From: an uncultured bacterium
GTDB taxonomy: Bacteria; Patescibacteriota; Minisyncoccia; Phycocordibacterales; Phycocordibacteraceae
Reading direction: 5' to 3'
NCBI GenBank assembly: GCA_937879955.1
Contig: CALFMK010000001.1
Coordinates: forward strand, 5,461 to 69,460
DNA length: 64,000 nucleotides
Both the position numbers and the translations under genes were made by a program. The notes under the pieces are model-generated. The model made no database searches. It had not been told where the DNA came from and worked only from the letters and a program-made list of their open reading frames with translations. Below are positions 5,825 to 60,909 of this stretch, piece after piece (positions within the stretch are counted from its first letter, which is position 1; every line of letters begins with the position of its first letter).

Positions 5825-5851
5825 AGCGCTCCTTTACGGGAGTGCTTTGTT
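5825..5851 (+). terminator. intrinsic terminator after nrdB
   Basis: AGCGCTCC-TTTAC-GGGAGTGCT hairpin followed by TTGTT. Confidence 0.55.
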
Positions 5852-5863
5852 ATACTAATTCCG

Positions 5864-8257
5864 ATGAAACACGTGGGAAGGCTTCTGGTACTGCTTTTTG
5901 GTGCTTTTATCTTTCCGGGGATGGTCTCTGCAGCCACCTACTACGTTGATGCGACTCTCGGTAATAATTCGAATAACGGCACTGCCGCTAGTACCTCGTG
6001 GCAGACGCTCGCCAAAGTAAACGGCACTACATTCTTGGCTGGCGATAATATCCTCTTTAAGAAGGGAGAGACGTTTACTGGTGTGCTCGTAGCAGGCCAG
6101 AGTGGCACTAATGGGAATCCAATCACGTACGGCTCATATGGGGAGGGTGCGCGCCCAATTATTAATGCCGCTGGAAATAATCATGGATTCGACATCCGGA
6201 CAGGTAAGTCTTATATCAATGTAGCTGGCCTCGAAGTTCGAAACGCGACCTTGAACCAGTTTCTTCTGTTCGCTAATAGTTCGAATATATCGCACGTGTC
6301 CATCCAGGACTCGATAGCTGTAGGGGGAACGAGCGGATTCAATTTACAGGGACCAGGAACGTTTCTAGACATAACAATAAGTAGCAGTACCGCAAGCGGG
6401 TACGCGGGAGGTTCTGCGGTTGGTGTTCGCCTTGGTTCAGGAACCACTTTTGATGGAATTACTCTCGATGGAGTATCGGCGGCTTCTGGAAGTGGGTATC
6501 AGGGCTTCAGTACTGGATCGGGAACCTATTCAAATATTTCGATACTGAACTCATCGTTCACTGGGCATCCATCAAACGGTATTGCGTTTCTGTCTGCAAC
6601 GACGACTAACGTGGTCATTAGGGATACTGTAGCGAGCTTGAATGGAGGAAGTGGGATTTATTTCTTTGGTGTGAAGAGTGGAGTTGAGATTGATAACGTA
6701 ACAGCAAACTCAAATACCCAAAACGGAATAGGATTTGAAGCTGGTGCCATGAATCACATATCAATCGAAGACTCCGAGTTCAACAATAATGGACTTAATG
6801 GAATCGCACTTCTCGGAAGCGGAACCGGAACGTCAACAATCGTTTCTCGGTCGATTGCGTCTGGTAATGATAATGACGGTTTTAATATCTCTGGAAACTG
6901 GCAGAATGTCGTATTCGAGGAAGCGATCGCAAGTGATAATGGTGTAGATGGTATTGGCTCGAACGGAGACGGCTTCAGCTTTCACAACTCGAGCACCGGT
7001 GTAATTAGGAATAGCCAGGCACATAATAATTGGAAGTCAGCCGTAACAAACGTGAATACATCGAGCACGACGGTATATAACAACCTCTTTTCGCATGACA
7101 CCAACGGAACGAATGCCCTCATCACATTCCTAGACAGCGGAAGCCATGCTGCTTACAACAATGTGCTCTATAGCCCTGCACAGGTGGGGTATGGATTGGT
7201 CGCGAATGGTACAACGACACTCATAGCGAGGAATAATATTATTCAAGGTTTTCAGTACGGCGTATCGAAGGGGACGAATGCCTTCTTGGTAGAAGATTAC
7301 AATGACGTTTATGGAGCCAGTACGGCCTCCTACATTGGGCTTACTGGAGGTGTACATTCTATCTCTGTGAATCCAAAGTTTGTCGACGCTGAGGATGATG
7401 ATTTCCGACTACTTCAGTCCTCTCTTGCTATAAATGCAGGTACTACGACGCCCTATGTAACCGATTACCTCGGAAATCCACGCGTCGGCATTCCGGATAT
7501 GGGTGCATATGAGTATCAGGGAATACCTGATATAACAGCACCTTCTATCTACATAATTGCACCAGTGGATCCGGCTACGATATCTGGAACTGTAATTATT
7601 ACCGCATCAGCGACGGATGCTATCGGCGTAGAAGAAGTCGAATTTTTTCTAGATGGAGTATCGCTCGGGGATGATGCATCTGATCCTTATTCATTTTCAT
7701 GGAACTCATCTGCAGTTCCCGATGGCGTATACTCACTTCTCGCAGTTGCACATGATGCTGAAGGGAATTATGCCACCTCCTCTCCTGTCTCCGTCACGGT
7801 CTCGAATGTAATTCAGGAAGCGAGCCATCGCTCTGGTAAGTCCGGTCAGAGTGTCGTACGCACTATCTCTCCGCTCGCAGATTCTGTATTAAATGAAGGA
7901 GAAGCAAAGATATCATCAATAAATCGGCTCATACTCGATAATCGCGCACTTTTTATGCTTGCGCAGGAAAAGGGAATAGTAGTTCCTGAATTCATACTCA
8001 ATATGCTCGATCTCCCTTCGGGCTCGACCATTTCGATATTCTTTAATCGTCCTCTTGCGCTTGGAGCAACTGGCCCAGATGTCACTGCACTCCAGCAGAT
8101 TCTTAAGGATAAGGGCTTCTATGTTTATCAGGAGATAACCGGCTACTACGGACAAGCCACACTACAAGCTGTTGCTGACTACCAGAAGTCACTTGGGCTC
8201 GAATCTCTCGGGTATGTAGGTCCAGCAACAAGGGAAGCCTTGAATGCTGGGATTTGA
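5864..8257 (+). CDS. secreted parallel beta-helix repeat protein with Ig-like module and C-terminal peptidoglycan-binding domain
   Basis: Signal peptide MKHVGRLLVLLFGAFIFPGMVSA. About 400 aa of G/N/S/T-rich repeats (..NGI.F..) typical of right-handed beta-helices. Ig-like segment VEEVEFFLDGVSLGDDASDPYSFSWNSSAVPDGVYSLLAVAHDAEGN. PG_binding_1-like tail GATGPDVTALQQILKDKGFY..GYYGQATLQAVADYQKSLGL. Lies in the low-GC island. Confidence 0.8.
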   Translation: MKHVGRLLVLLFGAFIFPGMVSAATYYVDATLGNNSNNGTAASTSWQTLAKVNGTTFLAGDNILFKKGETFTGVLVAGQSGTNGNPITYGSYGEGARPIINAAGNNHGFDIRTGKSYINVAGLEVRNATLNQFLLFANSSNISHVSIQDSIAVGGTSGFNLQGPGTFLDITISSSTASGYAGGSAVGVRLGSGTTFDGITLDGVSAASGSGYQGFSTGSGTYSNISILNSSFTGHPSNGIAFLSATTTNVVIRDTVASLNGGSGIYFFGVKSGVEIDNVTANSNTQNGIGFEAGAMNHISIEDSEFNNNGLNGIALLGSGTGTSTIVSRSIASGNDNDGFNISGNWQNVVFEEAIASDNGVDGIGSNGDGFSFHNSSTGVIRNSQAHNNWKSAVTNVNTSSTTVYNNLFSHDTNGTNALITFLDSGSHAAYNNVLYSPAQVGYGLVANGTTTLIARNNIIQGFQYGVSKGTNAFLVEDYNDVYGASTASYIGLTGGVHSISVNPKFVDAEDDDFRLLQSSLAINAGTTTPYVTDYLGNPRVGIPDMGAYEYQGIPDITAPSIYIIAPVDPATISGTVIITASATDAIGVEEVEFFLDGVSLGDDASDPYSFSWNSSAVPDGVYSLLAVAHDAEGNYATSSPVSVTVSNVIQEASHRSGKSGQSVVRTISPLADSVLNEGEAKISSINRLILDNRALFMLAQEKGIVVPEFILNMLDLPSGSTISIFFNRPLALGATGPDVTALQQILKDKGFYVYQEITGYYGQATLQAVADYQKSLGLESLGYVGPATREALNAGI

Positions 8258-8284
8258 ATTCTTCTAGAGGACGGCGATAATAAA

Positions 8285-8500
8285 CTATATATAACGTTTA
8301 ATTATCTCAACACTGCCCAAGGTCAGTATGTCTCTACCGACCACTCCGTTCTTACGGGTACTAATTACTTTAATAGCTTCTCGTTCGAGAAAGTACATTA
8401 CCGCAGTGTTCAGAATTAAATTCCTATCCCTCTCCTCTGTAACTAGTAAATCAATCGTTTCAAGGACATCCTCTGGAATATCAAGATTAATTTTAGACAC
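8285..8500 (-). CDS. ribbon-helix-helix (CopG-like) small DNA-binding protein
   Basis: KINLDIPEDVLETIDLLVTEERDRNLILNTAVMYFLERE follows the RHH strand-helix-helix pattern. GTG start, no obvious SD, 23 nt after the upstream ORF. Low GC. Confidence 0.55.
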   Translation of the reverse strand: MSKINLDIPEDVLETIDLLVTEERDRNLILNTAVMYFLEREAIKVISTRKNGVVGRDILTLGSVEIIKRYI

Positions 8501-8523
8501 TGTAAATTCTAAAAATTAAAGCT

Positions 8524-9181: not shown

Positions 9182-9484
9182 TTACTTCTTACCCCAGCGC
9201 CATGATGGCTCTTCGCCAAAGCGTAGGCAGATCCGGTAGAGGGAATAGGAAAGAAGGGCGATAACGCCTGTGAACTCTAAGACTCCGAAAATGATGTCCC
9301 GGGCCCCTACATGGCTCTCGACCGCGGCACCGACCCATCCGAAGAATATAAGGAAGGCGAAGGTGAAGAGGAGGGCATAGAAGACCGTCACGGCCCATCC
9401 CTGCCATGAGACAGGGAACCAGCCCCACCCGAATTCCTTCGCCCGGAACCACAGCTTCCGGGCCTTCCTTTTGTGTTCGCTCAT
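9182..9484 (-). CDS. small integral membrane protein
   Basis: 100 aa with two or three hydrophobic helices (WAVTVFYALLFTFAFLIFFGWVGAAV, IIFGVLEFTGVIALLSYSLY). Confidence 0.6.
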   Translation of the reverse strand: MSEHKRKARKLWFRAKEFGWGWFPVSWQGWAVTVFYALLFTFAFLIFFGWVGAAVESHVGARDIIFGVLEFTGVIALLSYSLYRICLRFGEEPSWRWGKK

Positions 9485-9643
9485 GGGCTTATAATACTGT
9501 AAATAGGCCGTTTTATCCAGGCTTGACTCCTAAAAATGAGGGTCTCCTGAACATGAAGAATTGGCTTTCCACGTCTTGACAGTGGTTGTCAACCCTGCTA
9601 CTATGGGCCTTGTCAGGCCGTCCGCAAGGGCGGTCTTTCATTT

Positions 9644-10258: not shown

Positions 10259-10330
10259 ATGAATCTCCTTCATGAAGAGTCCTGCTCGTAAGAGCCGGGC
10301 TCTTCTTACGTTTGGTATACTGAACCCAGT

Positions 10331-11578
10331 ATGAACATCACCCCGAAGATCCTCGTCGCAGCCGCGCTCATGGCGACGTTCGCGGTCGCAGGCGCTATGC
10401 CCGCTACCGCGCTCGCGGCAAGTAGCAGGTCCTCCTCAAAATCCTCGATAGAGATATCGGGATGGATCCCGTACTGGAGGACGGAGCTCGGCACGAAGGA
10501 CGCGAAGGCGCACATCTCGCAGATGGCAGAGGTGAACCCGTTCGGCTACACGGTGACGAGTACCGGGAATCTGAACGACGCCATGAAGATCGGCGGCGCC
10601 GACTGGCAGAGCCTCATCGCAGCCGCGAAGAAGAAGGGCGTGAAGGTCATCCCGACGGTCATGTGGAGCGATACGGCGTCCATCTATAGCGTCCTCTCGA
10701 ACCCGGTCACGCGCGCGTCGCACGTGAAGGCTATCGCGAAGGCCGTTAAGGACAACGGCTTCGACGGCATCGACATCGACTACGAAGGCAAGACCGCGGA
10801 GACCCGCGTCTACTTCTCTGCGTTCCTCGCCGAGCTCAAGGCCGAGCTCGGCCGCAGCAAGCAGCTCGACTGCACCATCGAGGCCCGCATGCCGCTCGAG
10901 GCGCGCTTCTCGGGAACTCCTCCGGCGAACATCGAGTACGCGAACGACCTCCCGGAGATCAACAAGAGCTGCGATCGCGTGCGCATCATGACCTACGACC
11001 AGCAGACCGCAGACCTGCAGCTGAACGCATCGGCACGCCGCGCAGGCGAGATCTATGCGCCTGTGGCGGACGTGAAGTGGGTGGAGAAGGTCGTTGAGTA
11101 CATGGGCAAGGATATCGACAAGAAGAAGATGGTCCTCGGCGTCCCGACGTACGGCTATATCTACCAGATCATGCCGAACTCGGATGGCAGCGGCTACGGC
11201 TACACGAAGCTCGAGGCCTTCAATCCGGCGTACGCGACGCAGCTCGCGAAGGAGCTCGGCATCACGCCGGAGCGCAACCGCGCGGGCGAGATGTCCTTCA
11301 GCTACGTGCCGAAGGACCAGCCGGCCTCGCTCCCGACGCAGAGCGCGCTCTCGCGGCTCGCGCCGCGGAGCACCTCGTCGGCGAGCCTCGCTGCCGCAGG
11401 TGCCCTCGCGCTTGCGAAGAGCAAGAAGCAGCAGGCCCCGTTCGAGTACATCACCTGGAGCGACGCGGGCGCGATCAAGCAGAAGGTGGACCTCGCGAAG
11501 AAGATGAAGCTCGCGGGCGTGGCGGTCTTCAAGATCGACGGAGGATCCGACCCGAAGATGTGGGACGTGCTGAAGTAG
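10331..11578 (+). CDS. secreted glycoside hydrolase family 18 protein
   Basis: Signal peptide and the GH18 catalytic motif FDGIDIDYEG. TATACT lies 9 nt upstream of the ATG. Confidence 0.85.
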   Translation: MNITPKILVAAALMATFAVAGAMPATALAASSRSSSKSSIEISGWIPYWRTELGTKDAKAHISQMAEVNPFGYTVTSTGNLNDAMKIGGADWQSLIAAAKKKGVKVIPTVMWSDTASIYSVLSNPVTRASHVKAIAKAVKDNGFDGIDIDYEGKTAETRVYFSAFLAELKAELGRSKQLDCTIEARMPLEARFSGTPPANIEYANDLPEINKSCDRVRIMTYDQQTADLQLNASARRAGEIYAPVADVKWVEKVVEYMGKDIDKKKMVLGVPTYGYIYQIMPNSDGSGYGYTKLEAFNPAYATQLAKELGITPERNRAGEMSFSYVPKDQPASLPTQSALSRLAPRSTSSASLAAAGALALAKSKKQQAPFEYITWSDAGAIKQKVDLAKKMKLAGVAVFKIDGGSDPKMWDVLK

Positions 11579-11992: not shown

Positions 11993-12874
11993 CTAATCGA
12001 ACAGCTCCGCAAGGTACTCGTCGATGGTGCGCTGGTCGAGGTCGTAGAACCACGCGTCATCGTCGTGCAGCCGCTCGGCGAGGTCCCTGCCTACGAAGCG
12101 CCAGTGCCACGGCTCGTACTGGTAGTACGTGTTGCCCTTGGGGTAGGAGAGCACAAAGCCGTACTTCCAGGCGTTCTTCGTGAGCCATTCGTACTCCTCG
12201 GTCTTGTCGAAGCCAGCGAACGTTCCGCCCACCGTCGTCGTCGTGAAGTCGACGGCGGTGCCGAGCTGGTGCTCGGAGTAGCCCTGATCTGCGGAGAACG
12301 AATTGGCTCCGGACCCGTACTTCACGGTGTAGCCGGACTTGAGCGACGCCTGGTTCGCGAACGAGCGGTACGAGGACGCCACCTTGAGGTCGAGGCCGTC
12401 CTCCTTCGCGTCGTCGAGCAGGTCCTCGAGGAACGGGTCTACGTCGGCATGTATCTCGTACGCGCGTCCCTCCTGGAACGCGTACGCGGCATCGATAACG
12501 GTCAGTCTCGACGGGACGTAGTTCTCGTTCAGGAAGTAGACCTTCGAGTACTTCGCGAGCAGCTCGGGATCGGTCTTCGCGAGCTTCTCGAGGGTCCCTA
12601 CGGTCCCCGAGAGGTCCTTGAGCTGGCTCTCGAACTTACCGTTCTTCTGCTGCTCGCGCCGGAGCTCCCCGGCGAGGCTGATGCTCTCCTCGGTCTTCTC
12701 GCCGAGCTTTCCGGTAAGCTCGGCCTCCTTCGCCTCGGCCGTCGCACGGGCCTCGGTAAGCGCGCTCTTCGCCGCCGCCAGCTCTGACGAGAGGGAATAG
12801 AGGCCGTACATCGCGAACCCTGCGAGCGCGAGGACGACGAGGCCGATGAGTGCGAGAAGGGTGCTGCGGGACAT
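11993..12874 (-). CDS. D-alanyl-D-alanine carboxypeptidase, VanY/M15B family, membrane-anchored with coiled coil
   Basis: N-terminal TM helix, a coiled-coil segment, then M15B motifs SSYRSFANQ, SEHQLGTAVD and EPWHWRF. Confidence 0.85.
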   Translation of the reverse strand: MSRSTLLALIGLVVLALAGFAMYGLYSLSSELAAAKSALTEARATAEAKEAELTGKLGEKTEESISLAGELRREQQKNGKFESQLKDLSGTVGTLEKLAKTDPELLAKYSKVYFLNENYVPSRLTVIDAAYAFQEGRAYEIHADVDPFLEDLLDDAKEDGLDLKVASSYRSFANQASLKSGYTVKYGSGANSFSADQGYSEHQLGTAVDFTTTTVGGTFAGFDKTEEYEWLTKNAWKYGFVLSYPKGNTYYQYEPWHWRFVGRDLAERLHDDDAWFYDLDQRTIDEYLAELFD

Positions 12875-12897
12875 ATGGCTATTCTCTCACAGGTCCC

Positions 12898-14979
12898 CTA
12901 TGCGCGCTCGATAGTAGCGAGAATCTCCTCGATCTCAGCGAGCCCCGCCGGCTTCGTGAGATGGTGGTCGAACCCGGCCTTCCGGGCCTTCTGTATGTCG
13001 GATTCCTGGCCGTAGCCGGTGAGTGCGACGAGCGTCGCGGCGAACCCATCAGCGCGGAGCGCCGTCGCGACCTCGTAGCCCTCCATGTCCGGCAGGCCGA
13101 TGTCGAGCAGGATCACGTCAGGACGGAACGCGGGCGCGCGGGCGATAGCCTCCTCGCCGGTATATGCGGTTTCGGTACGGTTCCCGCGGAGCGTGAGGAG
13201 CTTCGCGAGCGCGTCGGCCGCGGCGCGGTTGTCGTCCACGACGAGGATGCGGAACCCGTCACGCGCCTTTGGCGCTGCTACGGCCCGTGCCCGCACCCCG
13301 ACGGCTCCCTCCTGCGGGAGCGGGATGCGGACGGTGAACCGGCTCCCGTGTCCGGGCCCGTCGCTCTCGGCCTCGATCGTGCCGTCGTGCATCTCCACCA
13401 GGTTCTTGGTAAGCGAGAGGCCGATGCCGAGACCTGCGTGCATCTTGCCGGGCTGCTCGATCTGGAAGAACGGTTCGAAGACGTGCGCAAGGAGCGCGGC
13501 GTCCATGCCGATGCCGGTGTCCGTCACCGTGACGACGGCCTCGGTCCCGTCCGTGCGTGCCACGAGCTCGATACGGCCTCCGGGCTCGGTGTACTTCGCC
13601 GCGTTGTTGAGGAGGTTCACGAACACCTGCTCGAGACGCACGGGATCGGCCTCGAGGCGGATCGCCTCGTCCGGCATGTCGATCGAGAGCTCGTGCTTGA
13701 GGGACGCCATGAGCGGCGCCACGGTACGCTGGCTCCTTGCGAGCACGGTCTGGAGGTCGATGTGCTCCTTCTGGAGGGAGAGCTTCTCGCGGGTGATGCG
13801 CGAGATGTCGAGCAGGTCGTCGAGGAGATGCCGCATGGTCTTCAGGTGGTCGGTCATGCCTTCGGCGAGCTCGCTCGAGCGAGCGGCATCCGGCCGCTCG
13901 AGCTTCATGATCTCGAGCGAGGACATGAGCGGGGCGAGCGGGTTGCGCAGCTCGTGCGCGAGGGTGGCGATGAAGCGGCTCTTCGCCTCGTCCTCACGGC
14001 GGATCCGCTCCACGGCGTCCTCGAGCCTGCGCACGTTGTCGCGCAGGACGTTCGCGGTGTCCTTGCGCTCCTCCGCGATGGAGACGAGCACGAGGAATAT
14101 GAGGGAGAGCACGATCACGAATATCTCGGTCTGCAGGAGGTCGTATCCGAGCGTCCCTGTACCGGACGCGAGGCTGAGGAACGCGGTGCCGCCGAGCGCG
14201 AGCGCGGCGTTCAGGAAGAGCGCGAGCGTCATGAAGCGCGGGCCGATGCGCAGCGCGATCCAGAGGAACGGGATGAGGATAAGGTATACGAGCGGCACCT
14301 GCGCGATCTCGCGGTATGGGGTCCAGTACAGGAGGAGGCCGGTCCCGACGACGGCCGCTATCGCGACCCAGGCCTCGACGAGCTCGCCCTTCGTGCGCTG
14401 GAACCTGAAGCGCGGCAGCCACTTGATGAGGAGCGGCGTCACGACGAGCATGGAGAGGATGTGCCCGATCCACCACGGGATGAAGGTACCCATGAGGCCG
14501 CGGGGCATGGCGCGCTCGGCCAGGGTGAAGGTGAGGGTTCCGAGCGCCGGGATGAGGATGGTGACGAAGAGCGCGACGAACACGAACATGAGGGTGTCGG
14601 GAGCCTTCGAGAAGGTGTTGCGGTATCCGAGCTTCCGGAGGAGCCAGGTGCCCACGCTTGCCTGTATGGCGTTCGCCGCCGCAAGCCCGAGCGCCACGAA
14701 CAGCACGCTCCCGTTCAGGAGCTGGTGCGCGAGAGCTGCCAGGAATACCGCAGGCCAGAGCGCGATGCCGCCGAGGAGGAGTCCGCCGAGCGCGATGCCG
14801 GATGCCGGCCAGATGAGGGCCGGGGCGGTCGGGACGGAGGAATAGATATGCGAGAAGACCTGGGCGCAGAACAGGTACGCGCAGAACAGCAGCGCCATGT
14901 AGAGGAGCGACCGTCCGGAATAGGGGAAGCGAGGCATAGACGGGTGGATGGCGTTCTCCCTAGGATACATTCTTTTCAT
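12898..14979 (-). CDS. hybrid sensor histidine kinase (multi-TM MASE1-like sensor, HisKA, HATPase, C-terminal receiver)
   Basis: About 300 aa of TM helices. H-box LAHELRNPLAPL. ATP-lid boxes NLLNNAAKYT, DTGIGM and GLGIGL. Receiver ILVVDDN..ILLDIGLPDMEG..LTKP. Start could be an internal Met (14970 or 14937). Confidence 0.85.
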   Translation of the reverse strand: MKRMYPRENAIHPSMPRFPYSGRSLLYMALLFCAYLFCAQVFSHIYSSVPTAPALIWPASGIALGGLLLGGIALWPAVFLAALAHQLLNGSVLFVALGLAAANAIQASVGTWLLRKLGYRNTFSKAPDTLMFVFVALFVTILIPALGTLTFTLAERAMPRGLMGTFIPWWIGHILSMLVVTPLLIKWLPRFRFQRTKGELVEAWVAIAAVVGTGLLLYWTPYREIAQVPLVYLILIPFLWIALRIGPRFMTLALFLNAALALGGTAFLSLASGTGTLGYDLLQTEIFVIVLSLIFLVLVSIAEERKDTANVLRDNVRRLEDAVERIRREDEAKSRFIATLAHELRNPLAPLMSSLEIMKLERPDAARSSELAEGMTDHLKTMRHLLDDLLDISRITREKLSLQKEHIDLQTVLARSQRTVAPLMASLKHELSIDMPDEAIRLEADPVRLEQVFVNLLNNAAKYTEPGGRIELVARTDGTEAVVTVTDTGIGMDAALLAHVFEPFFQIEQPGKMHAGLGIGLSLTKNLVEMHDGTIEAESDGPGHGSRFTVRIPLPQEGAVGVRARAVAAPKARDGFRILVVDDNRAAADALAKLLTLRGNRTETAYTGEEAIARAPAFRPDVILLDIGLPDMEGYEVATALRADGFAATLVALTGYGQESDIQKARKAGFDHHLTKPAGLAEIEEILATIERA

Positions 14980-14996: not shown

Positions 14997-15044
14997 CCCG
15001 CGCCTTGCTACGGAGCCGTGCTTCGCCGTACTATGGGCTCCACT

Positions 15045-15455
15045 ATGACAGCAAAAGGAAAGTACGTACCCGGCGAGTGGACGCTCGCCGTGAAGCGGTC
15101 GAGCGCCGGCCTCGGCCTGTTCGCGGGCGAGCGCATCCCGAAGGGCGCCTGCGTCATCGAGTATGTCGGACGCACGGTATCGAAGGAGGAGAGCGAGACG
15201 AGCAAGAGCAAGTACCTCTTCGAGATCTCGAAGAACAAGACCATCGACGGGAAGCCGAAGATAAACAAGGCGGGGTACATCAACCATGCCTGCAATCCGA
15301 ACTGCGAGACGGAGATAGCGAAAGGCCGCATCTTCGTGATGGCGATCAAGGACATAAAGCCCGGAGACGAACTCACCTACGACTACGGGAAGGAGTACTG
15401 CCTCGAGCACTGCGTCCCGTGCCGCTGCAGCGCGAAGAAGCACCTGTACGGATAG
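15045..15455 (+). CDS. SET-domain protein (putative lysine methyltransferase)
   Basis: GLGLFAGERIPKGACVIEYVG, NHACNPNC, ELTYDY and a Cys-rich tail CLEHCVPCRC. Start set to the ATG at 15045, 10 nt after TACTAT. The track start at 15018 is in the same frame. Confidence 0.8.
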   Translation: MTAKGKYVPGEWTLAVKRSSAGLGLFAGERIPKGACVIEYVGRTVSKEESETSKSKYLFEISKNKTIDGKPKINKAGYINHACNPNCETEIAKGRIFVMAIKDIKPGDELTYDYGKEYCLEHCVPCRCSAKKHLYG

Positions 15456-15500: not shown

Positions 15501-15516
15501 GTGCTAGCGTACTCCC

Positions 15517-49343: not shown

Positions 49344-49350
49344 TCAGGGC

Positions 49351-51489: not shown

Positions 51490-52095
51490 CTATGTCTCCT
51501 TCCGGTTCTGGAGCGCCGCCGAGAGGGTAGCGGAATCGGCGTACTCGAGCTCGGAGCCCGTGGCGAGCCCGCGGCCGAGCTCGGAGATGAGGATGGGGCC
51601 GCGCAGGGGCGCGAGCAGCTCGCGGACACGGTCCGCGGTGTGCTCGCCCTCAGAAGTCGCCGAGAGCGCGAGGACGATCTCCGAGAGGCCGTTGCGGGAT
51701 CGCTCCTCCACGACGCGCACGAGGTCGCGCTCGCGGATGGCGCCCTTGCCGGAGAGCGTGAGGACGCCGCCGAGGACGAAGTACCGTCCGCGATAGGTGC
51801 CTGCGCGCTCCACGGCTACCAGGTCCTGGTCCTTCTCGAGGATCATGAGGATAGCGTCTTCCCGGCCCTGGTCCGCGCAGTAGTTGCAGAGGGCGTCCGC
51901 GTTCACGGGCGCAAAGCGCATGCACATGCGGCACTGCGCGACGTCCTGCCCGAGGTTCGCGATGAGGTCGGCGAGGCGGTTCCGGTCGCCCTGCGAGACG
52001 GCGAGAAGGTGATAGACGAAGCGCTTCGCCTGGCGGGGTCCGATGCCCGGGAAGCGGTTGAACGCTGCGGAGAGGTCTTCAATCCGGTCGCGCAT
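51490..52095 (-). CDS. recR: recombination protein RecR
   Basis: FPGIGPRQAKRFVYHLL (HhH), Cys4 finger CRMC..CNYC, and a Toprim domain. Confidence 0.92.
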   Translation of the reverse strand: MRDRIEDLSAAFNRFPGIGPRQAKRFVYHLLAVSQGDRNRLADLIANLGQDVAQCRMCMRFAPVNADALCNYCADQGREDAILMILEKDQDLVAVERAGTYRGRYFVLGGVLTLSGKGAIRERDLVRVVEERSRNGLSEIVLALSATSEGEHTADRVRELLAPLRGPILISELGRGLATGSELEYADSATLSAALQNRKET

Positions 52096-52097
52096 GG

Positions 52098-53468: not shown

Positions 53469-53480
53469 GCCCCCATTCTA

Positions 53481-54941
53481 TCAACCGCGCCTCCTGGTGA
53501 CTACGGTCCCGGAAGGGCCGTCTTCAACATGATATCCACTCTCCTCTATGTGGATACGGAGCGCGTCTGACTTCGCGAAATCCCGGGAAATGCGCGCGAT
53601 ATCGCGCTCCTTGAGGAGCGCCTCGATATGGGCAGGGATAGCGGCCTCCTTGGCAAGGAGCGAGAGGCCGAACACGGCGTCCGCGGCCTCGATGACGGCG
53701 AGCTGCTCCTCGCGTCCCATGTCCTCGTCCTTCACGGCCTCCCAGAGGAGCGCGAGCGCGGCGGGGGTGGCGAGGTCATCCCGCAGGAGGGCGATAACGC
53801 GGCGGCTCGCGTCGGACTGCCGGGCCACGCCCTTCGCTTCCGCATGGATGGTGCGTGCGATGCGCTGCAGGCGCTCGAGCGCCGCATCCGCGGCCGCGAG
53901 CGACTCCCAGGTGAACGAGAGCGGGGAGCGGTAATGAGCCTGGAGGAACAGGTAGCGGAGCGCGAGGGGGCTGTAGCCGCGCTCGACGACGTCGGAGACG
54001 TAGTAGGTATTCCCGAGGGACTTCGCGATCTTCTCGCCGTCTATCGTGAGGAACCCGCCGTGCATCCAGAAGCGCGCGAGCGGCTTGTCGAAGGCGGCCT
54101 CGGACTGCGCGATCTCGTTGGTGTGATGGACCGGGATGTGATCGATGCCGCCGGTATGGATGTCGAGCGGCTGGCCGAGGAGGCTGCGTGCCATCGCGGA
54201 GCACTCGATGTGCCAGCCCGGGAACCCGACGCCCCACGGACTCTTCCATTCCTGTTCGCGCCGCGCGCCGCGGGGCGAGAACTTCCAGAGCGCGAAGTCC
54301 GCAGGATGCCTCTTCTCGTCGTTGCCGGCGATGCGGCGGCCGATCTCCGCGAACGCCTCTTCGCGCATCTTCGCGCCCGAGTGGTCCAGCACGCCGTAGG
54401 CAGGGAACTGCTTCGTATCGAAATAGATGCCGTCGGAGGTGCGATAGGTATAGCCGCGCTGCTCGAGCCGCTTCACGATGTCGATCTGCTCCTCGATGTA
54501 GTCGGTGGCCTTCGGGAAGCTGATGTCGTCGACGTCCACGCCGAGCATGCGGACGTCGTCGAGGTACATCTTCGTGTAGCGCGCGGCGATGTCCTGCGCG
54601 CGGAGCCCCTCCTTCTTCGCGCCCATCTCCATCTTGTCCTCGCCGTCGTCCGCGTCCGAAACGAGGTGGCCGACGTCCGTGATGTTTATCACGCGGCGCA
54701 CGTGATAGTCCGCGCTCTTGAGCGTGCGGGCGAGGAGGTCGGAGAACACGACGGCCCGCATGTTCCCGATGTGCTGCTTGCTGTAGACGGTGGGTCCGCA
54801 GGAGTAGAGCGTCACGGACCCGGCGCGTATCGGGGAGAAGATCTCCTTCTTCCCGGAAAGGGTATTCGTGAGGAGGACGGGCGCGTCGCTCCGGGCAGGC
54901 TCGCTCGCACGAGGACGGAAGAGGGAGGCGAGCCAGTTCAT
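53481..54941 (-). CDS. cysS: cysteinyl-tRNA synthetase
   Basis: CGPTVYSKQHIGNMR (HIGH-type), WHIECSAM, and the KMSKS-equivalent GEKIAKSLGN. Confidence 0.93.
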   Translation of the reverse strand: MNWLASLFRPRASEPARSDAPVLLTNTLSGKKEIFSPIRAGSVTLYSCGPTVYSKQHIGNMRAVVFSDLLARTLKSADYHVRRVINITDVGHLVSDADDGEDKMEMGAKKEGLRAQDIAARYTKMYLDDVRMLGVDVDDISFPKATDYIEEQIDIVKRLEQRGYTYRTSDGIYFDTKQFPAYGVLDHSGAKMREEAFAEIGRRIAGNDEKRHPADFALWKFSPRGARREQEWKSPWGVGFPGWHIECSAMARSLLGQPLDIHTGGIDHIPVHHTNEIAQSEAAFDKPLARFWMHGGFLTIDGEKIAKSLGNTYYVSDVVERGYSPLALRYLFLQAHYRSPLSFTWESLAAADAALERLQRIARTIHAEAKGVARQSDASRRVIALLRDDLATPAALALLWEAVKDEDMGREEQLAVIEAADAVFGLSLLAKEAAIPAHIEALLKERDIARISRDFAKSDALRIHIEESGYHVEDGPSGTVVTRRRG

Positions 54942-55043
54942 GCCCGTATTCTACCCTAGAGTCCCTGGCGTTTGACAGGCCTCCTTGGCAGGAGCACTCT
55001 ACGGAAAGCACCTTGTCCTTACGTAGTTTCTGAGGAGGTAGAG

Positions 55044-55645: not shown

Positions 55646-56563
55646 CTACAGCCACTTCTTCAGCTTGAAGAACGCGAGGAGCGCGAGGCCCGTGAGCGTC
55701 ATGATGCCGAGGATGATCCAGAAGCCGTTCTGTCCGTGCACGACAGGCATGTACTCCGCGTTCATGCCGAATACGGACGCGATGAGGGTGAGCGGCACCC
55801 CGACGAACGCCATCACCGTGAGGGTCTTGGTCACCTGGTTCTGGCTCGCCGAGAGGAGGGAGTCGTTGGTGATGCGGAGCTCCTGCGCCACGGCGCGATA
55901 CGAGGACACGAGCCCTGCGGCGTGGGTGCGCCTCGCCTCGATATGCGCGGCATGCTCCTCGAAGGCGGTGCCGAAGAAGACCGGCGTTGAGAGCGCCGCG
56001 AGGAAGTCCGCGAGCGGCTCCTTGTGACGCGAGAGGGAGGTCTCGAACCGCAGGAGGATGCGGCCGGTCTCGGAGATCGGACGGACCGTCTCCTGTTCCT
56101 TGCCGGAGAAGATGTCGCGCTCGATGCGCTCGAGCCGGTATCCGGCCTGCTCGATGTCCTCGCTGATGGAGGCGTAGAGGCGGCTCATGACGCGCTCGAG
56201 CAGCTCGCCGGTGCGCAGCAGGCCGCCGCGCAGCTCGAGCATCTCCTCGGCCTCGAGCACCTTATGCAGGTTATGGAGCGACTCGATGCTCTCGTACCTG
56301 GCGGTTATGAGGAAGTGCTTGCCGACGATGAAGTCGATCTCCTGGGAGCGGGTGCCGTCCTCGGAGCCCGCGATCGGGAAGTGCAGGATGAGATAGGTGT
56401 AGCCCGGGAAGGAGATGGAGAGCGGGTAGGCGGTCGGCGTCGAGATCTCCTGGTGGATGCGCTCGTCGATGTCGAACTCCCGCATCACCTCGCTCACTTC
56501 CTCGTCGGTCGGGCACTCAAGGTCGACCCAGACGGTCTTGCCGCGCGTATGCCTGGTTATCAT
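55646..56563 (-). CDS. corA: CorA-family magnesium/cobalt transporter
   Basis: C-terminal two TM helices with the GMN motif (ASVFGMNAEYMP). Confidence 0.88.
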   Translation of the reverse strand: MITRHTRGKTVWVDLECPTDEEVSEVMREFDIDERIHQEISTPTAYPLSISFPGYTYLILHFPIAGSEDGTRSQEIDFIVGKHFLITARYESIESLHNLHKVLEAEEMLELRGGLLRTGELLERVMSRLYASISEDIEQAGYRLERIERDIFSGKEQETVRPISETGRILLRFETSLSRHKEPLADFLAALSTPVFFGTAFEEHAAHIEARRTHAAGLVSSYRAVAQELRITNDSLLSASQNQVTKTLTVMAFVGVPLTLIASVFGMNAEYMPVVHGQNGFWIILGIMTLTGLALLAFFKLKKWL

Positions 56564-56650
56564 GCCAGTAAGTATACGCGCTCCGCGTACGTCTTAAGCG
56601 GCATAGCCTCTCGCATCAGTGGATATGCGCGGCATGATAGAATTTCTCCC

Positions 56651-57922
56651 ATGAACCCATTCGAAGAATCCGAGGCGCCGATCCGCTCCTCCAGCCCGTT
56701 ACCGAAGATCGCGAAGCTCGGCATCGCGTCCGCGCTCATGCTCGCCGTCGGATTCATCGGCGGCATCTCGGTAGGCGCCGCGAACGCGAGCAACCTGATC
56801 GCGAACGTGCCGCTGCTCGGCGACGGGCTCGACGCGACCCCGGACGCCGATGCCGACCTCACGGACTTCTGGAAGGCATGGAACACGCTCGACTCGCGGT
56901 TCGTCGAGACGCACTCGACCTCGAGCCTTCCGACATCGGAGAACAAGATCTGGGGCGCTATCCAGGGTCTCGCCGCATCGTACGGCGACCCGTACACGAT
57001 ATTCATGCCGCCGTCGGAAGCGAAGCAGTTCCAGGACGATATCCGGGGCGACTTCTCGGGCGTAGGCATGGAGCTCGGCGTGAAGGACGGCGTCCTCACC
57101 GTCATCGCACCCTTGAAGGGTACGCCGGCAGAGCGCGCAGGCCTCCGCTCCGGCGACATGATCATCGCGATCGACAAGGCCTCCACCGACGGCCTCTCGA
57201 CCGACGAGGCGGTGAAGCTCATCCGCGGCGAGAAGGGCACGACCGTCACCTTCACCATCATCCGGGACGGCAAGTCGTCCGAGATACCTGTCGTGCGCGA
57301 CACCATCGTCGTGCCGACCATCGAGACGGAGACCAAGGACGGCGTGTTCGTCATCTCCTTCTACAGCTTCACGGCTAACTCGAGCCAGCTCTTCGCGAAG
57401 GCTATCGCCGAGTTCCGCGCTTCCGGCTCTAAGAAGCTCGTCATCGACCTGCGCAGCAATCCGGGCGGCTACCTCGAGTCCGCGGTGGCTATAGCGGGCC
57501 ACTTCCTCCCGAAGGGAGCTAGCGTCGTCACCGAGGACTATAAGGGGAAGGGGAATCAGGAGAACGTCGTGCATCGCAGCCGCGGCATCGGCGGCTTGCC
57601 TGAGGGCGCGAAGGTCGCGATCCTCATCGATCAGGGCTCCGCGTCAGCGTCCGAGATCCTCGCGGGAGCGCTGCAGGACGCGCACGTAGCGACGCTCATC
57701 GGCACTCGCTCGTTCGGAAAGGGCTCGGTCCAGGAGCTCGTCGATATCAACGGCGGCGCGCTCAAGGTCACGATCGCGCGCTGGCTCACCCCGAGCGGCC
57801 GTTCCATCTCCGACGGCGGCCTCACGCCTGACATCGAGGTCGAGTACACCGCGAAGGACCGCGATGCGGACGCCGATCCGCAGATGGACCGCGCGATACG
57901 GTTCCTGAACACGGGGAAGTAG
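56651..57922 (+). CDS. carboxy-terminal processing protease (S41)
   Basis: N-terminal TM, PDZ (GTPAERAGLRSGDMIIAID), S41 core (DLRSNPGGYL, GSASASEILAGAL, GKGSVQ). Start at the ATG at 56651, 7 nt after TAGAAT. The upstream part of the track ORF is antisense to corA. Confidence 0.88.
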   Translation: MNPFEESEAPIRSSSPLPKIAKLGIASALMLAVGFIGGISVGAANASNLIANVPLLGDGLDATPDADADLTDFWKAWNTLDSRFVETHSTSSLPTSENKIWGAIQGLAASYGDPYTIFMPPSEAKQFQDDIRGDFSGVGMELGVKDGVLTVIAPLKGTPAERAGLRSGDMIIAIDKASTDGLSTDEAVKLIRGEKGTTVTFTIIRDGKSSEIPVVRDTIVVPTIETETKDGVFVISFYSFTANSSQLFAKAIAEFRASGSKKLVIDLRSNPGGYLESAVAIAGHFLPKGASVVTEDYKGKGNQENVVHRSRGIGGLPEGAKVAILIDQGSASASEILAGALQDAHVATLIGTRSFGKGSVQELVDINGGALKVTIARWLTPSGRSISDGGLTPDIEVEYTAKDRDADADPQMDRAIRFLNTGK

Positions 57923-57962: not shown

Positions 57963-58052
57963 TCTATTGACGTTATCTAGATATAGAGGTATAACCATCC
58001 CAGACGTTCTCTCCATGAATGGTCATGAGAGACAGATCGATGGGAGGAATAC

Positions 58053-58412
58053 ATGCTCCGTTCGCTTCAAGACCTGGAAACCGGGATCATCATCCCCGAT
58101 ACGGTCGCGTACCACGTCCGCGCGTTCGACATCGTCGGCCGCTGGACGGGCCGCGACATCGACGGCGCGATGCACGCCCGGTCCCTGATTCGGATCACGG
58201 ATCCGGACATCATCGCGCTGATCCGCGACGACGACCTGCTCGATCGCAGCGGCATGCCGAACCTGATCCCGCAGGACGATATCCTGGCCCTGAGCCTGGT
58301 CTACTCGCGCAACGACCGCGGCATCACGACCGATCGCGCGAGCATGACCTCGCGGATCCCGTGGACGGGCGGCCGCCTGTTCGTGCTCGCCGCCGGCGCC
58401 TGTCCGAACTGA
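58053..58412 (+). CDS. hypothetical protein
   Basis: TTGACG-N16-GTATAA promoter-like boxes and SD GGGAGGAA. 119 aa. Confidence 0.5.
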   Translation: MLRSLQDLETGIIIPDTVAYHVRAFDIVGRWTGRDIDGAMHARSLIRITDPDIIALIRDDDLLDRSGMPNLIPQDDILALSLVYSRNDRGITTDRASMTSRIPWTGGRLFVLAAGACPN

Positions 58413-58508
58413 CGGCGTCCTGACCCGCATACAAACCCCGGCTACCAAGGTAGCCGGGGTTTTCTCTGTCGTTGCGCGGCCCTATCTTTGCCGGTAGGAT
58501 GGTCCTAT

Positions 58509-58934
58509 ATGAAAGTCGTACTACTCAAAGACGTGAAGAATACGGGCCGTGCGGGAGCGGTCATCGAGTGCTCTGACGGGCACGCGCAGAACTTCCTCAT
58601 ACCGCGCGGCATGGCCGCGCTCGCGACGCCCGCGAACCTCAAGCAGGCCGAGCTCCGCCTCAAGCAGGAAGGCGAGCGCAAGGCGCTCGACGTGAAGCTC
58701 ATCCAGGACCGCCTCGCCGCGCTCGCGGAGGAGCGCATCGTCATCCTGAAGAAGACGAACGAGAAGGGTCACCTCTACGACGCGGTCGACGCGGCGGATA
58801 TCGCGAAGGCGACGCAGCTTCCGGTAGAGGCCATCAAGCTCGAGAAGCCGTTCAAGGAGGTCGGCACGTTCGACGTCCCGGTAGCGCTCGGAGAGAGTTT
58901 CGGGAAGCTCTCCATCACGGTCGAGGCCGAGTAA
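58509..58934 (+). CDS. rplI: 50S ribosomal protein L9
   Basis: MKVVLLKDVKNTGRAGAVIECSDGHAQNFLIPRGMA. Start at the ATG at 58509, 9 nt after TAGGAT. Confidence 0.92.
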   Translation: MKVVLLKDVKNTGRAGAVIECSDGHAQNFLIPRGMAALATPANLKQAELRLKQEGERKALDVKLIQDRLAALAEERIVILKKTNEKGHLYDAVDAADIAKATQLPVEAIKLEKPFKEVGTFDVPVALGESFGKLSITVEAE

Positions 58935-59544: not shown

Positions 59545-59558
59545 CGGAGGAGGATGGC

Positions 59559-59837
59559 TTATGCCGGCACGACGTCCACGACCTTCTTCTGGACGACGCG
59601 TCCGTCGAAGTTGGTCTTGCGGCGGCTGCGAAAGAGGACCTTGCCCGCGATCATCGAGTAGAGGGTGTGGTCATGGCCGACCTTCACGTTGTGGCCTGCC
59701 TCGATCTTGGTGCCGCGCTGGCGCACGATAACCATGCCCGGGCGCGCTGCCTGGCCGTCATAGAGCTTAACGCCCAGGAACTTTGGTCCTGAGTCGCGCC
59801 CGTTCTTAGTCGATCCTCCGGCTTTTGTGTGTGCCAT
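59559..59837 (-). CDS. rpmA: 50S ribosomal protein L27
   Basis: [24 protein letters not shown]...RQRGTK...G.D.TL. Confidence 0.93.
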
Positions 59838-59860
59838 ACTGCTATACTTTTTAGGTTGCT

Positions 59861-60289
59861 ATGACTATATCAGAGGAGCAGGTACAGGGCAAGGCGTATA
59901 TAGGCCGTATACCCCCGGATATCCTCATCCTCCTGGTGCTCGTGCTCTCCTCGACCCTGGCGTTCGGGCTCGGGATCCTGGCAGGGAAGGATATGGCAAA
60001 GACGGACGGGAAGGACGGATTCTGGATAGAACAGCTCCCGGAACAGCCCGGAAGTGCTGCGGGAGGGCCTGCCGCGGCCATCGAGGCCGTTACGCCCGCG
60101 AAGGCTGCCGAGCCGGCACCGGCTCCTGGGCCCCAGGTCTACATGGCCTCGAAGAACGGCACTAAGTACTACCTGCCGTCCTGCGGGTCCGCGAAGCGCA
60201 TTAAGGAGGAGAACCGGATCTGGTTCGCTACCAAGGACGAGGCGGAGGCGGCAGGGTACGGCCCGGCGGCGAACTGCCCGGGGCTCTAG
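59861..60289 (+). CDS. membrane-anchored protein with small C-terminal Cys-containing domain
   Basis: TM ILILLVLVLSSTLAFGLGILAG, a Pro/Ala linker, then YMASKNGTKYYLPSCGSAKRIKEENRIWFATKDEAEAAGYGPAANC. This resembles the small metal-binding module often found at the C-terminus of CPR ComEA-like proteins. Confidence 0.6.
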   Translation: MTISEEQVQGKAYIGRIPPDILILLVLVLSSTLAFGLGILAGKDMAKTDGKDGFWIEQLPEQPGSAAGGPAAAIEAVTPAKAAEPAPAPGPQVYMASKNGTKYYLPSCGSAKRIKEENRIWFATKDEAEAAGYGPAANCPGL

Positions 60290-60303
60290 GGTAGAATAGG
60301 CGC

Positions 60304-60909
60304 ATGATAGTCCTCGACGTCGAAGGGACCGGGCTCGACCCGCAGAAGCATTCCATCGTATCCATCGGCGCGCTCGACCTCGACGATCCCACGAACCAGT
60401 TCTACGAGGAGTGCCAGGTGTGGGACGGCGCGGAGATCGAGGATGCGGCGCTCATGGTTAACGGCTTTGCGCGCGAGGAGATAACCGGACAGGGAACCCG
60501 AAAGCAGACCGAGGCTGAGCTCATCGCGTCCTTCGTCACGTGGGCCATGGATCGCCCGAAGGACCGCACGCTCGCGGCGCAGAACGTCACGTTCGACCGG
60601 TTGTTCGTCGAGGCGGCGTGCAGGCGCGCCGGGATCGAGTGCCCGTTCGCGCACCGGACGCTCGACGTGCACAGCCTCGTGTGGCTGCACATGGTCTCGA
60701 ACGGGAAGGTGCCGCCGACGAAGAACGCGCACTCGGGCATCGATCTCGGGTTCGCGCTCAACTACGCCGGGCTCCCTGAAGAGCCCCGGCCGCACAATGC
60801 ACTCACAGGCGCCTTCTGCCATGCCGAAGTGATATCGCGCATAGCGTATACTAAGAAACTACTACCAGACTTCAGCGACTTCGACATTCCATGGGAGACG
60901 AACCGATAA
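60304..60909 (+). CDS. DEDD-family 3'-5' exonuclease (DnaQ-like)
   Basis: Exo I VLDVEGTGL, Exo II AQNVTFDRLF, Exo III PHNALTGAFCHAE. TAGAAT lies 6 nt upstream of the ATG. Confidence 0.8.
   Translation: MIVLDVEGTGLDPQKHSIVSIGALDLDDPTNQFYEECQVWDGAEIEDAALMVNGFAREEITGQGTRKQTEAELIASFVTWAMDRPKDRTLAAQNVTFDRLFVEAACRRAGIECPFAHRTLDVHSLVWLHMVSNGKVPPTKNAHSGIDLGFALNYAGLPEEPRPHNALTGAFCHAEVISRIAYTKKLLPDFSDFDIPWETNR

Follow-up and report, generated by a model that had tools for sequence, protein, structure and literature searches.

In a 64,000-nucleotide (nt) stretch of contig CALFMK010000001.1 from an uncultured bacterium (hereafter the window), genes start in markedly different ways, and what separates them is probably their age: conserved genes would by default be expressed from leaderless or near-leaderless mRNAs, the interiors of operons would do without Shine-Dalgarno (SD) sequences, and SD motifs would stand in front of newcomers. 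The window (GC content ~63%) is, to judge from its MurA, part of a high-GC genome of the Paceibacterota (Parcubacteria, candidate phyla radiation, CPR), because this protein is matched, at 60-87% identity, only by proteins from metagenome-assembled genomes of Paceibacterota, Parcubacteria, Kaiserbacteria and the "Patescibacteria group". Genes were called with a self-trained codon model, after which 73 starts were curated, and all genes were annotated against Pfam. Among the 73 curated genes 27 have leaderless-type starts, 18 are SD-led, 13 are coupled to the preceding gene without SD and 15 remain unclassified, which places 28 genes outside both the leaderless and the SD class. Orthologue footprinting drew on up to 160 related loci, and spacing profiles on 80 genome loci (43-65% GC) and 80 metagenome loci, together spanning 30-70% GC. 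An Rfam scan found two tRNAs and no other family in the window, and no rRNA either there or in the 161 related loci fetched.

An earlier note on this DNA had listed 17 genes with a TAnnnT hexamer 6-10 nt before the ATG. All 17 carry this box on the correct strand (minus for 18695, 20984, 21568 and 22897) and at the spacing given, except that in rplI it lies 8 nt upstream and not 9. Ten more such starts were found (9484, 15517, 16793, 32003, 41686, 45706, 46486, 53468, 54941 and 56563), and all 27 genes begin with ATG. The spacing is 6 nt in 14 genes (13 before the PBP2 gene at 32003 was reclassified), 7 nt in six, 8 nt in two, 9 nt in four and 10 nt in one; in seven internal genes (21568, 26275, 32003, 45706, 49351, 53468 and 60304) the box sits within the 3' end of the upstream gene. 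The signal is also seen independently of annotation: upstream of the 720 ATGs that open reading frames of at least 80 codons, a box ends 6 nt away 14 times and 7 nt away 11 times, against a background of ~2.3 per position (12-60 nt upstream), and this 6-7 nt peak recurs in the 80 genome and 80 metagenome loci. The leaderless-type starts are, from box to ATG (new, added here to the earlier list):

5851..5866, +: beta-helix/PG-binding gene, TATACT, 7 nt, ATG; terminator-like hairpin directly upstream; low-GC island
9482..9496, -: orphan membrane protein of 100 amino acids (aa), TATTAT, 6 nt, ATG; new
10316..10333, +: GH18 gene, tggTATACT, 9 nt, ATG, with A at box+7 giving AGT-ATG; terminator 10287-10310 abuts the box
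15029..15047, +: SET-domain gene, near-leaderless, TACTAT, 10 nt, ATG
15505..15519, +: DUF167 gene, tgcTAGCGT, 6 nt, ATG; new
16791..16806, -: 133-aa secreted orphan, TACCAT, 7 nt, ATG; terminator directly upstream; new
18693..18707, -: VOC/glyoxalase gene, tgcTATACT, 6 nt, ATG; tRNA-Asn terminator 18759-18740 abuts
20982..20996, -: def, tgcTATAGT, 6 nt, ATG; box in 55/70 orthologues; Pfam position 1 is residue 1
21566..21580, -: conserved 98-aa gene (g21568), internal, tggTACAAT, 6 nt, ATG; 27 nt past the murA stop; box in 21/53 orthologues
22895..22910, -: murA, tgcTACAAT, 7 nt, ATG; box in 73/77 orthologues
22974..22989, +: mreB, TATGAT, 7 nt, ATG; back-to-back with murA across an 89-nt gap; box in 68/78 orthologues
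25556..25570, +: holB, TAGACT, 6 nt, ATG; box in 43/60 orthologues
26261..26277, +: frr, internal, TACACT, 8 nt, ATG; 14 nt past the holB stop; box in 48/59 orthologues
28670..28687, +: proS, TATACT, 9 nt, ATG (ACT-ATG); box in 44/49 orthologues
31991..32005, +: PBP2/mrdA, internal, TATCAT, 6 nt, ATG; ATGA overlap with the upstream stop; box in 34/35 orthologues; new
41684..41701, -: truB, TATCAT, 9 nt, ATG; terminator 41749-41727 abuts; box in 5/5 orthologues; new
45704..45718, -: yqeY, internal, tggTACGAT, 6 nt, ATG; box in 7/9 orthologues; new
46484..46498, -: radC, TACGAT, 6 nt, ATG; new
46665..46679, +: P-type ATPase gene, TATACT, 6 nt, ATG; Cation_ATPase_N 1-67 aligns to residues 7-72; box in 9/9 orthologues
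49339..49353, +: rmuC, internal, TATAAT, 6 nt, ATG; 7 nt past the ATPase stop; box in 9/9 orthologues
50773..50790, +: rplU (L21), TACTAT, 9 nt, ATG (ACT-ATG); terminator 50726-50750 upstream; box in 19/21 orthologues
53466..53480, -: dnaB, internal, TAGAAT, 6 nt, ATG; 12 nt past the cysS stop; box in 24/36 orthologues; new
54939..54953, -: cysS, TAGAAT, 6 nt, ATG; box identical in the sister strain (locus L161); new
56561..56576, -: corA, TATACT, 7 nt, ATG; back-to-back with the S41 protease gene; box in 18/18 orthologues; new
56638..56653, +: S41 protease gene, TAGAAT, 7 nt, ATG; the longest reading frame, from 56024, would share 540 nt with corA
58495..58511, +: rplI (L9), TAGGAT, 8 nt, ATG; L9_N 1-46 aligns to residues 1-46; box in 9/13 orthologues
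60292..60306, +: exonuclease gene, internal, TAGAAT, 6 nt, ATG; 14 nt past the upstream stop; box in 14/15 orthologues

Two of these pairs, murA/mreB and corA/S41 protease, are divergent, and their back-to-back promoters almost fill gaps of 87-89 nt (22898-22986 and 56564-56650).

The second class comprises 18 genes with the SD consensus (A/G)GGAGG. Every SD site reported earlier is present, with a GGAGG-like core and a purine run ending 2-7 nt before the start, those of 28174 and 45176 being weaker; -35 boxes of the TTGACA type stand before 39772, 40410, 43683, 44547, 45176, 50492, 59419 and 24328. The SD peak is visible without annotation as well (8 and 11 against ~2.3). A typical unit consists of a -35/-10 promoter, a leader of 20-45 nt and the SD, and a consensus scan finds a full -35/-10 promoter before 8 of the 18 SD genes, as opposed to 2 of the 27 leaderless ones, which have an extended -10 only. 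The SD-led starts are:

17449..17465, -: 127-aa secreted orphan, SD AAGGAGGG; 0 homologues in 160 loci
18162..18176, -: thymidine kinase gene, SD AAGGAGGG; 0 homologues in related loci
24326..24341, -: 94-aa secreted orphan, SD AGGGAGG; -35/-10 promoter at 24402-24375
24904..24920, -: 155-aa secreted orphan, weak SD GAAAGGA
28172..28189, -: 80-aa orphan, weak SD GGAAAGGAAG
28567..28583, -: 101-aa orphan, SD AGGGAG
34669..34685, -: 126-aa orphan, SD AGAAGGAGG
39719..39774, +: 121-aa orphan, TTGACT-16-TATAGT, ~20-nt leader, SD AAAAGGAG, ATG
40357..40412, +: 135-aa orphan, TTGATT-16-TATAGT, leader, SD GAAGGAGGAG, ATG
42764..42778, -: regulator with winged helix-turn-helix domain and SciP-like part, SD AGGAG
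43681..43764, -: CtrA homologue, TTGACA-16-TATCAT, leader, SD AGAGGAGAG, GTG
44545..44624, -: second CtrA homologue, TTGACA-16-TAGTAT, leader, SD AGGAGGA, ATG
45174..45244, -: 71-aa orphan, TTGACA-18-TATAGT, leader, SD GAGAGGTG, ATG
50428..50494, +: 68-aa orphan, TTGACG-17-CATAGT, leader, SD GGGGGAGGAA, ATG
51192..51207, +: 80-aa orphan, SD AGGGAGGAA
55032..55046, +: 181-aa orphan (55044), SD GAGGAGG
58042..58055, +: 119-aa orphan, SD GGGAGGAA
59417..59500, -: 140-aa secreted orphan, TTGAAC-16-CATAAT, leader, SD AGGGAGGGG, ATG

The two classes had been described as housekeeping versus orphan genes. The contrast is strong, but it is better put as conserved versus lineage-specific or imported, as the leaderless class also holds the GH18, SET and VOC genes and a gene of the low-GC island. 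Pfam matches were obtained for 24 of 27 leaderless but only 4 of 18 SD genes (p = 1.6e-5), the four being thymidine kinase and the regulator block; in the regions covered by relatives, homologues occur in at least 5 of the 160 loci for 20 of 23 leaderless genes versus 0 of 14 SD genes (p = 1e-7). SD genes are shorter (median 126 versus 250 aa, p = 0.0016) and score lower in codon usage (p = 7.5e-4; 6e-5 without the two leaderless genes of the low-GC island) at equal GC content. The same dichotomy is seen clade-wide when the signal is taken first, in close relatives, and the genes behind it are then divided into conserved ones (homologues in at least 3 other loci) and those without homologue: the leaderless box, with 718 sites versus 286 at control spacing, has an excess of 372 at conserved genes and 46 at genes without homologue, and the SD, with 421 versus 268 sites, one of 34 and 117. 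Ten SD orphans searched against PHROGs and NCBIfam had no significant match. For 55044, the largest orphan, only one homologue turned up among 5.8 billion proteins; it is 93% identical and comes from a sister strain which keeps both the SD and the leaderless box of the divergent cysS. In view of this homologue, the retained SD and a dN/dS of 0.24, 55044 is a real, fast-evolving gene.

The explanation that competes best with gene age, and in part overlaps with it, is that the split separates two regulatory regimes, SD leaders serving post-transcriptional or condition-specific control and the constitutive core being leaderless. SD genes do include response regulators and four proteins with signal peptides, their -35 promoters are typical targets of activators and repressors, and a leaderless mRNA has no 5' untranslated region on which riboswitches or small RNAs could act. 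SD genes are, however, overwhelmingly orphans that lack homologues even in sister genera, and there are regulators that have no SD, at 999 (a response regulator) and at 14970 (a hybrid kinase); we regard regulation as a rather unlikely main cause of the split.

The TAnnnT box behaves like a sigma-70 -10 element, and the earlier view of it as the promoter of leaderless transcripts gains support from five independent lines of sequence evidence. The commonest spacing, 6 nt, would put the transcription start on the initiation codon itself. Upstream, the box is preceded by (T/C)G(G), with G at -2 in 21 and at -1 in 18 of 26 sites and a TGn (equivalent to an extended -10) in 11 of 26; no conserved -35 was found upstream of the leaderless boxes, the best matches reaching 1-4 of 6 positions. 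Downstream, in the related genomes, A occupies the seventh position past the hexamer in 47-53% of the sites with spacings of 8, 9 and 10 nt and in 44% of those with 11 nt, compared with ~10-35% A elsewhere in the spacer; when the spacing is 6, this position is the A of the ATG. As the enrichment of A stays at box+7 whatever the distance of the ATG, the start point would be set relative to the box and not to the ATG; sites of spacing 9 typically read ACT-ATG, that is, with a 3-nt leader, and spacings of 8-10 nt probably give mini-leaders of 2-4 nt. At 10331, 18695, 41686 and 50788 intrinsic terminators abut the box and thus leave space for neither a further promoter nor a leader. Across orthologues the box is retained at 5-10 nt while its flanks diverge, and in most of the well-sampled conserved genes it is kept in 67-100% (murA 95%, mreB 87%, def 79%, holB 72%, frr 81%, proS 90%, PBP2 97%, rplU 90%, corA 100%, exonuclease 93%, dnaB 67%, rplI 69%). 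It is missing from all 13 coupled genes of the window and nearly so from the orthologues of such genes (fmt 2%, recR 6%, mreD-like 0%); the seven short-gap genes which do carry it, conserved in frr and PBP2 as just given, are read as having internal promoters. Absence before tightly coupled genes is the criterion by which GeneMarkS-2 tells promoters from ribosome-binding sites (PMC6028130).

That criterion bears on a second possibility, namely that TAnnnT is a non-SD ribosome-binding or enhancer element on leadered mRNAs, like the "group B" motifs of Bacteroidetes. The box is A/T-rich and lies at about the distance of an SD from the start, but a ribosomal signal would hardly be absent from coupled starts, carry a TGn/GG extension and an A at a position independent of the ATG, or directly follow a terminator; this explanation appears very unlikely.

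Even less probable is that the starts were mis-assigned, with the box-proximal ATG lying in a 5' untranslated region, translation beginning at a downstream codon and the mRNAs being leadered after all. Start calling is error-prone in high-GC genomes, and public calls for the 591,393-bp source contig indeed differ for murA (22906) and mreB (22975). These lie three and four codons upstream of the leaderless ATG, respectively, the mreB call inside the -10 box and the murA call overlapping the 3' end of its box; as the earlier note had held, such starts are too far upstream, and the public calls thus err in the direction opposite to that supposed, those for proS and def coinciding with the leaderless ATG. 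Pfam profiles begin at or near it, positions 1-3 aligning to residues 1-8 (profile to residue: def 1 to 1, L9 1 to 1, exonuclease 1 to 2, MreB 3 to 7, MurA 1 to 8, ATPase_N 1 to 7), so that the true start cannot be further downstream without truncating domains; alignments of orthologues extend to residues 1-5, and the ATG is conserved.

Just as improbable is a split by operon position alone, first genes being leaderless and internal ones SD-led irrespective of age or function, although this is the standard group C model (PMC6028130). Each of the 18 SD genes stands alone, as the first or only gene of its unit, with at least 54 nt of gap before it and mostly with a promoter of its own; an SD is lacking in all 20 window genes that follow a same-strand neighbour by 30 nt or less. 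Nor is there an SD excess at 525 tight junctions from ~100 close relatives, where GGAG/GAGG occurs at 4-12 nt in 8% versus 10% in the control; a leaderless box is present at 20% of them. In the clade the distances at junctions have modes at -4, -1 and +1 to +4, and in the window 12 of the 13 coupled junctions fall between -44 and +9 nt, the remaining one being a 23-nt gap:

12872..12900, -: hybrid kinase to VanY gene, loose, gap of 23 nt without SD; the ATG preceded at 6 nt by a non-canonical GAGAAT
20463..20470, -: def to fmt, ATGCCTAA overlap, no SD; in fmt orthologues box 2%, SD 11%, equal to background
26827..26835, +: frr to M50 protease gene, TAG-gcc-ATG, no SD
29927..29936, +: proS to second mreB, TAG-acat-ATG, no SD
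30952..30995, +: second mreB to mreC, -44 nt overlap, no SD at functional distance
31752..31755, +: mreC to 84-aa mreD-like gene, ATGA overlap
35458..35467, +: mraZ to rsmH, TAA-cggt-ATG, no SD
36420..36427, +: rsmH to ftsL-like gene, ATGCCTAA overlap
36696..36705, +: to ftsI-type penicillin-binding protein gene, TAG-tcct-ATG, no SD
38428..38436, +: to Mur ligase gene, TAG-acc-ATG, no SD
52093..52100, -: dnaB to recR, TAG-cc-ATG, no SD
60891..60909, +: exonuclease gene to LOG-family gene, -19 nt overlap
61683..61697, +: to 53-aa open reading frame, TAG, 9 nt, ATG, no SD

At more distant loci SD motifs are enriched at junctions (16% versus 5%). Among distant metagenome loci anchored on CysS (L127, L128, L148 and L151 versus L118 and L153) modes are mixed, some showing strong enrichment of the leaderless box and no SD, others SD and no box, which suggests that the initiation mode switches from lineage to lineage.

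Finally, chance or composition, an A/T hexamer beside an ATG in a GC-rich genome, may be disregarded, loose as the TAnnnT motif is, in view of 17 occurrences of TANNNT-N6-ATG in the window versus 7.1 +/- 2.8 in dinucleotide shuffles, 14 of them at predicted gene starts, of the sharp positional peak and of the conservation of the box between diverging flanks.

Some observations nevertheless weigh against a strict division into leaderless core and SD-led newcomers. The positions of transcription starts, the leaderless mode of translation and reinitiation at junctions are inferences from sequence, and the 73-gene table was curated by hand in knowledge of the signals, for which the annotation-free and orthologue tests were added as an offset. 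Box retention is moderate or low for cysS (48%), g21568 (40%), DUF167 (35%) and SET (30%). Three leaderless genes are orphans, and one is in the low-GC island, so the age split is a tendency and not a rule. Lastly, the 15 genes in no class mostly have SD-less leaders of ~15-35 nt or ambiguous starts.

The latter include greA, rpmA, grx, hpf, mraZ and nrdAB, their leaders being SD-less and G-poor; greA and grx switch between leaderless and leadered forms among relatives. Seven of these 15 genes have a stop triplet 10-13 nt ahead of the ATG, mostly TAA and often as part of CTAAC; the G-poor leaders concerned are those of 999, 4768, 16346, 18955, 19248, 25509 and 59837, and the predicted transcripts of 16346 and 25509 would open with AUAG. 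In hpf (19248) and its orthologues a mini-reading frame of 3-7 codons ends ~11 nt before the start (~19221-19235 in the window), and CTAA is weakly enriched clade-wide at the corresponding distance. Such upstream mini-frames were nonetheless rejected as a general mechanism for SD-less leaders; in the other genes the triplet has no consistent frame with any ATG further upstream, and TAA has no clade-wide peak at that distance. In four loci (L013, L021, L028 and L036) T(T)TCTAACGGG stands directly before the ATG of unrelated genes (orthologues of def, proS, hpf and g21568); the string may act as a start cassette peculiar to the lineage or as some other initiation signal.

A mechanism in keeping with the division of conserved from newcomer genes can be outlined as follows. 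A housekeeping-sigma -10 element of the form (T/C)G(G)-TAnnnT, usually without -35, would drive the conserved genes, transcription beginning at box+7, which is the A of the ATG at spacing 6 or lies 1-4 nt upstream of the ATG at spacings 7-10. The 5'-terminal AUG would then be bound directly by the ribosome without an SD, by analogy with leaderless mRNAs elsewhere. In those systems initiation depends on 70S ribosomes and IF2. Most internal genes, SD-free and -44 to +9 nt from the upstream stop, would be translated by termination-reinitiation coupling, others from a leaderless promoter of their own within the 3' end of the preceding gene, and a minority of conserved genes would use SD-less, G-poor leaders. 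The canonical SD (A/G-GGAGG) would be confined to stand-alone -35/-10 units encoding short, fast-evolving, lineage-specific proteins or recent imports (the two CtrA homologues, the SciP-like protein and possibly thymidine kinase). The start classes would thus mainly part an old core from newcomers and, secondarily, represent two promoter and 5'-end architectures.

The clearest candidates for imported genes are those of the block at 41759-44547 (minus strand), which lies between the CPR core genes truB, yqeY and radC. Its tandem CtrA copies, 43683 and 44547 (promoters 43764-43737 and 44624-44597), exceed the NCBIfam cut-off for the CtrA equivalog (380 and 361 versus 350 bits), the former sharing 86% aa and ~80-85% nt identity with ctrA of Caulobacter vibrioides; gene 42766 combines winged helix-turn-helix domains with a SciP-like C-terminus. 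The block, which is absent from the 160 related loci, has the look of a recent import from Alphaproteobacteria (Caulobacterales), and Caulobacterales may be the host lineage of the organism. DNA upstream of Caulobacter ctrA did not align with the upstream regions of either window copy and so gives no sign that promoter and SD were transferred along with the gene. A regulon of CtrA boxes in the window was rejected: TTAA-N7-TTAA has 0 matches at up to 1 mismatch (1.97 expected), and a scan for TTAACCAT gave 1 match (0.2 expected), leaving such a regulon without support.

Two further promoters are of the -35/-10 type. The best match in the window, TTGACA-16-TATACT (11/12; 34865-34892, minus strand), has the SD-led orphan 34671 ~190 nt downstream; this distance implies that either the leader is long or 34672-34865 holds a small gene or RNA missing from the annotation, divergent from mraZ. 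In 20998-21268 (minus strand) a strong promoter, TTGACT-16-tgcTATAGT, is followed by ~235 nt without credible reading frame and by a terminator that abuts the leaderless box of def. This stretch folds better than its shuffles (z = -3.1, 0/200); at a permissive threshold Rfam gave only a chance DnaX match for the 21.0-21.3 kb unit, and blastn of three non-coding stretches, this one included, against the 160 related loci gave no matches. It may be a lineage-specific small RNA.

A low-GC island at ~5800-9600 has ~53% GC and atypical codon usage, GC at third codon positions being 0.43 in the beta-helix gene versus ~0.88 elsewhere in the window. Its first gene (beta-helix) and orphan 9484 both have leaderless-type boxes, and therefore imported genes can, it seems, likewise gain leaderless architecture. 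Between the response regulator (999) and nrdA (1831) lie 830 nt (1000-1830) with several terminator-like hairpins, in which no credible reading frame or Rfam match was found; an identical string, AAGGCTGACTTA(T/C)AA, precedes both nrd genes (in 1000-1830 and 4720-4768). Of two MreB paralogues, one (22987-23997) has a leaderless-type start and diverges from murA; the other (29934-30995) is coupled to proS and precedes mreC, the mreD-like gene and PBP2, the whole being a full rod-shape module in a CPR genome. The stop codons of the 73 curated genes are most often TAG (33, with 20 TAA and 20 TGA), and 72 of the genes start with ATG, a count partly biased by the curation; the preference for TAG and the near-universal ATG are unusual for a genome of 63% GC.

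The general kind of architecture is already known from group C and the leaderless genomes of Actinobacteria and Deinococcus. GeneMarkS-2 group C comprises genomes with frequent leaderless transcription (Actinobacteria 90%, Deinococcus-Thermus 97%); in the sections that treat it, the phyla named are Actinobacteria, Deinococcus-Thermus, Proteobacteria and Firmicutes, and CPR/Patescibacteria are not mentioned there (Lomsadze et al. 2018, PMC6028130). The window shares with this description the Pribnow box 6-8 nt before first-gene starts, the need for a dual start model and the misplacement of starts if this is ignored. It departs from it in that the model gives ribosome-binding sites to internal genes and leadered first genes, whereas internal genes here show no SD and the leadered first genes comprise 18 with and ~15 without SD; also, many internal genes have their own leaderless promoter, and SD motifs stand only on lineage-specific stand-alone genes. 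Deinococcus deserti is ~60% leaderless (de Groot 2014, cited in PMC6028130). It belongs to a different phylum but resembles our organism in having leaderless starts as the majority mode and a -10-like motif just before the ATG. We know of no report, though no search was made for one, that SD motifs in D. deserti are restricted to orphan or imported genes.

In Mycobacterium tuberculosis and M. smegmatis a quarter to a third or more of the transcripts are reportedly leaderless and, as in the window, have a TANNNT -10 and little or no -35; transcription starts there on the A or G of the start codon, as it would on the A here. Leaderless genes of M. tuberculosis are reportedly enriched for toxin-antitoxin and non-growth functions, and ribosomal and housekeeping genes tend to be SD-led. 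In haloarchaea such as Haloferax volcanii (group D), the majority of transcripts is leaderless and many leaders lack an SD; core translation is largely SD-independent, as it would be here, but the TATA/BRE promoter lies ~26 nt upstream and the initiation machinery is different. The coupled junctions, with their stop-start overlaps (ATGA, ATGCCTAA) or gaps of 2-9 nt, resemble systems in which termination-reinitiation or 70S scanning reportedly operates; in model bacteria such coupling is said usually to be assisted by an SD that lies within the preceding gene, whereas the clade shows no SD enrichment at junctions.

Within the same broad lineage, the anti-SD motif has been lost from about half of the Parcubacteria 16S rRNAs (Tsurumaki et al. 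2022, PMC9297842), which likewise implies SD-independent initiation; the mechanism on the mRNA side was left open there. To judge from the enrichment of GGAGG 5-7 nt ahead of 18 starts, the window organism presumably still has the motif. A bolder reading, which is possible but which we would only tentatively entertain, is that in the Paceibacteria clade around this genome all conserved core genes dispense with SD-anti-SD pairing, being translated from leaderless 5'-AUG mRNAs, by reinitiation where operon genes meet or from SD-less leaders poor in G, and that the SD serves only as an "adaptor" for newborn or imported genes; if true, the window would represent an intermediate state explaining the loss of the anti-SD, and the architecture of its start would indicate the age or foreign origin of a CPR gene. 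The searchable literature holds no description of leaderless architecture in Parcubacteria/CPR, mentions of Patescibacteria, CPR and Saccharibacteria being incidental (reference lists, YchF, protein secretion), nor one of SD-free operon interiors, nor one of an SD confined to lineage-specific or imported genes. The lineage, the SD-free interiors and the restriction of the SD to newcomers thus look undescribed.

For genome annotation this means that gene finders which expect an SD place starts wrongly, affecting N-termini, signal-peptide prediction and family boundaries across a large uncultured radiation. For Parcubacteria it would offer an mRNA-side explanation for the reported reduction of SD/anti-SD and ribosome components. 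The polarity reported for mycobacteria would be reversed, the core (L21, L9, aminoacyl-tRNA synthetases, def, frr, murA, mreB, dnaB) being leaderless and accessory genes SD-led. The ~15-bp leaderless promoters would be ready expression parts for future CPR genetics. If SD-led -35 cassettes do mark newcomers, recent gene gain in CPR genomes could be read cheaply from start architecture, and a CtrA/SciP module this close to that of Caulobacter hints at the donor, possibly the host, lineage of the organism.

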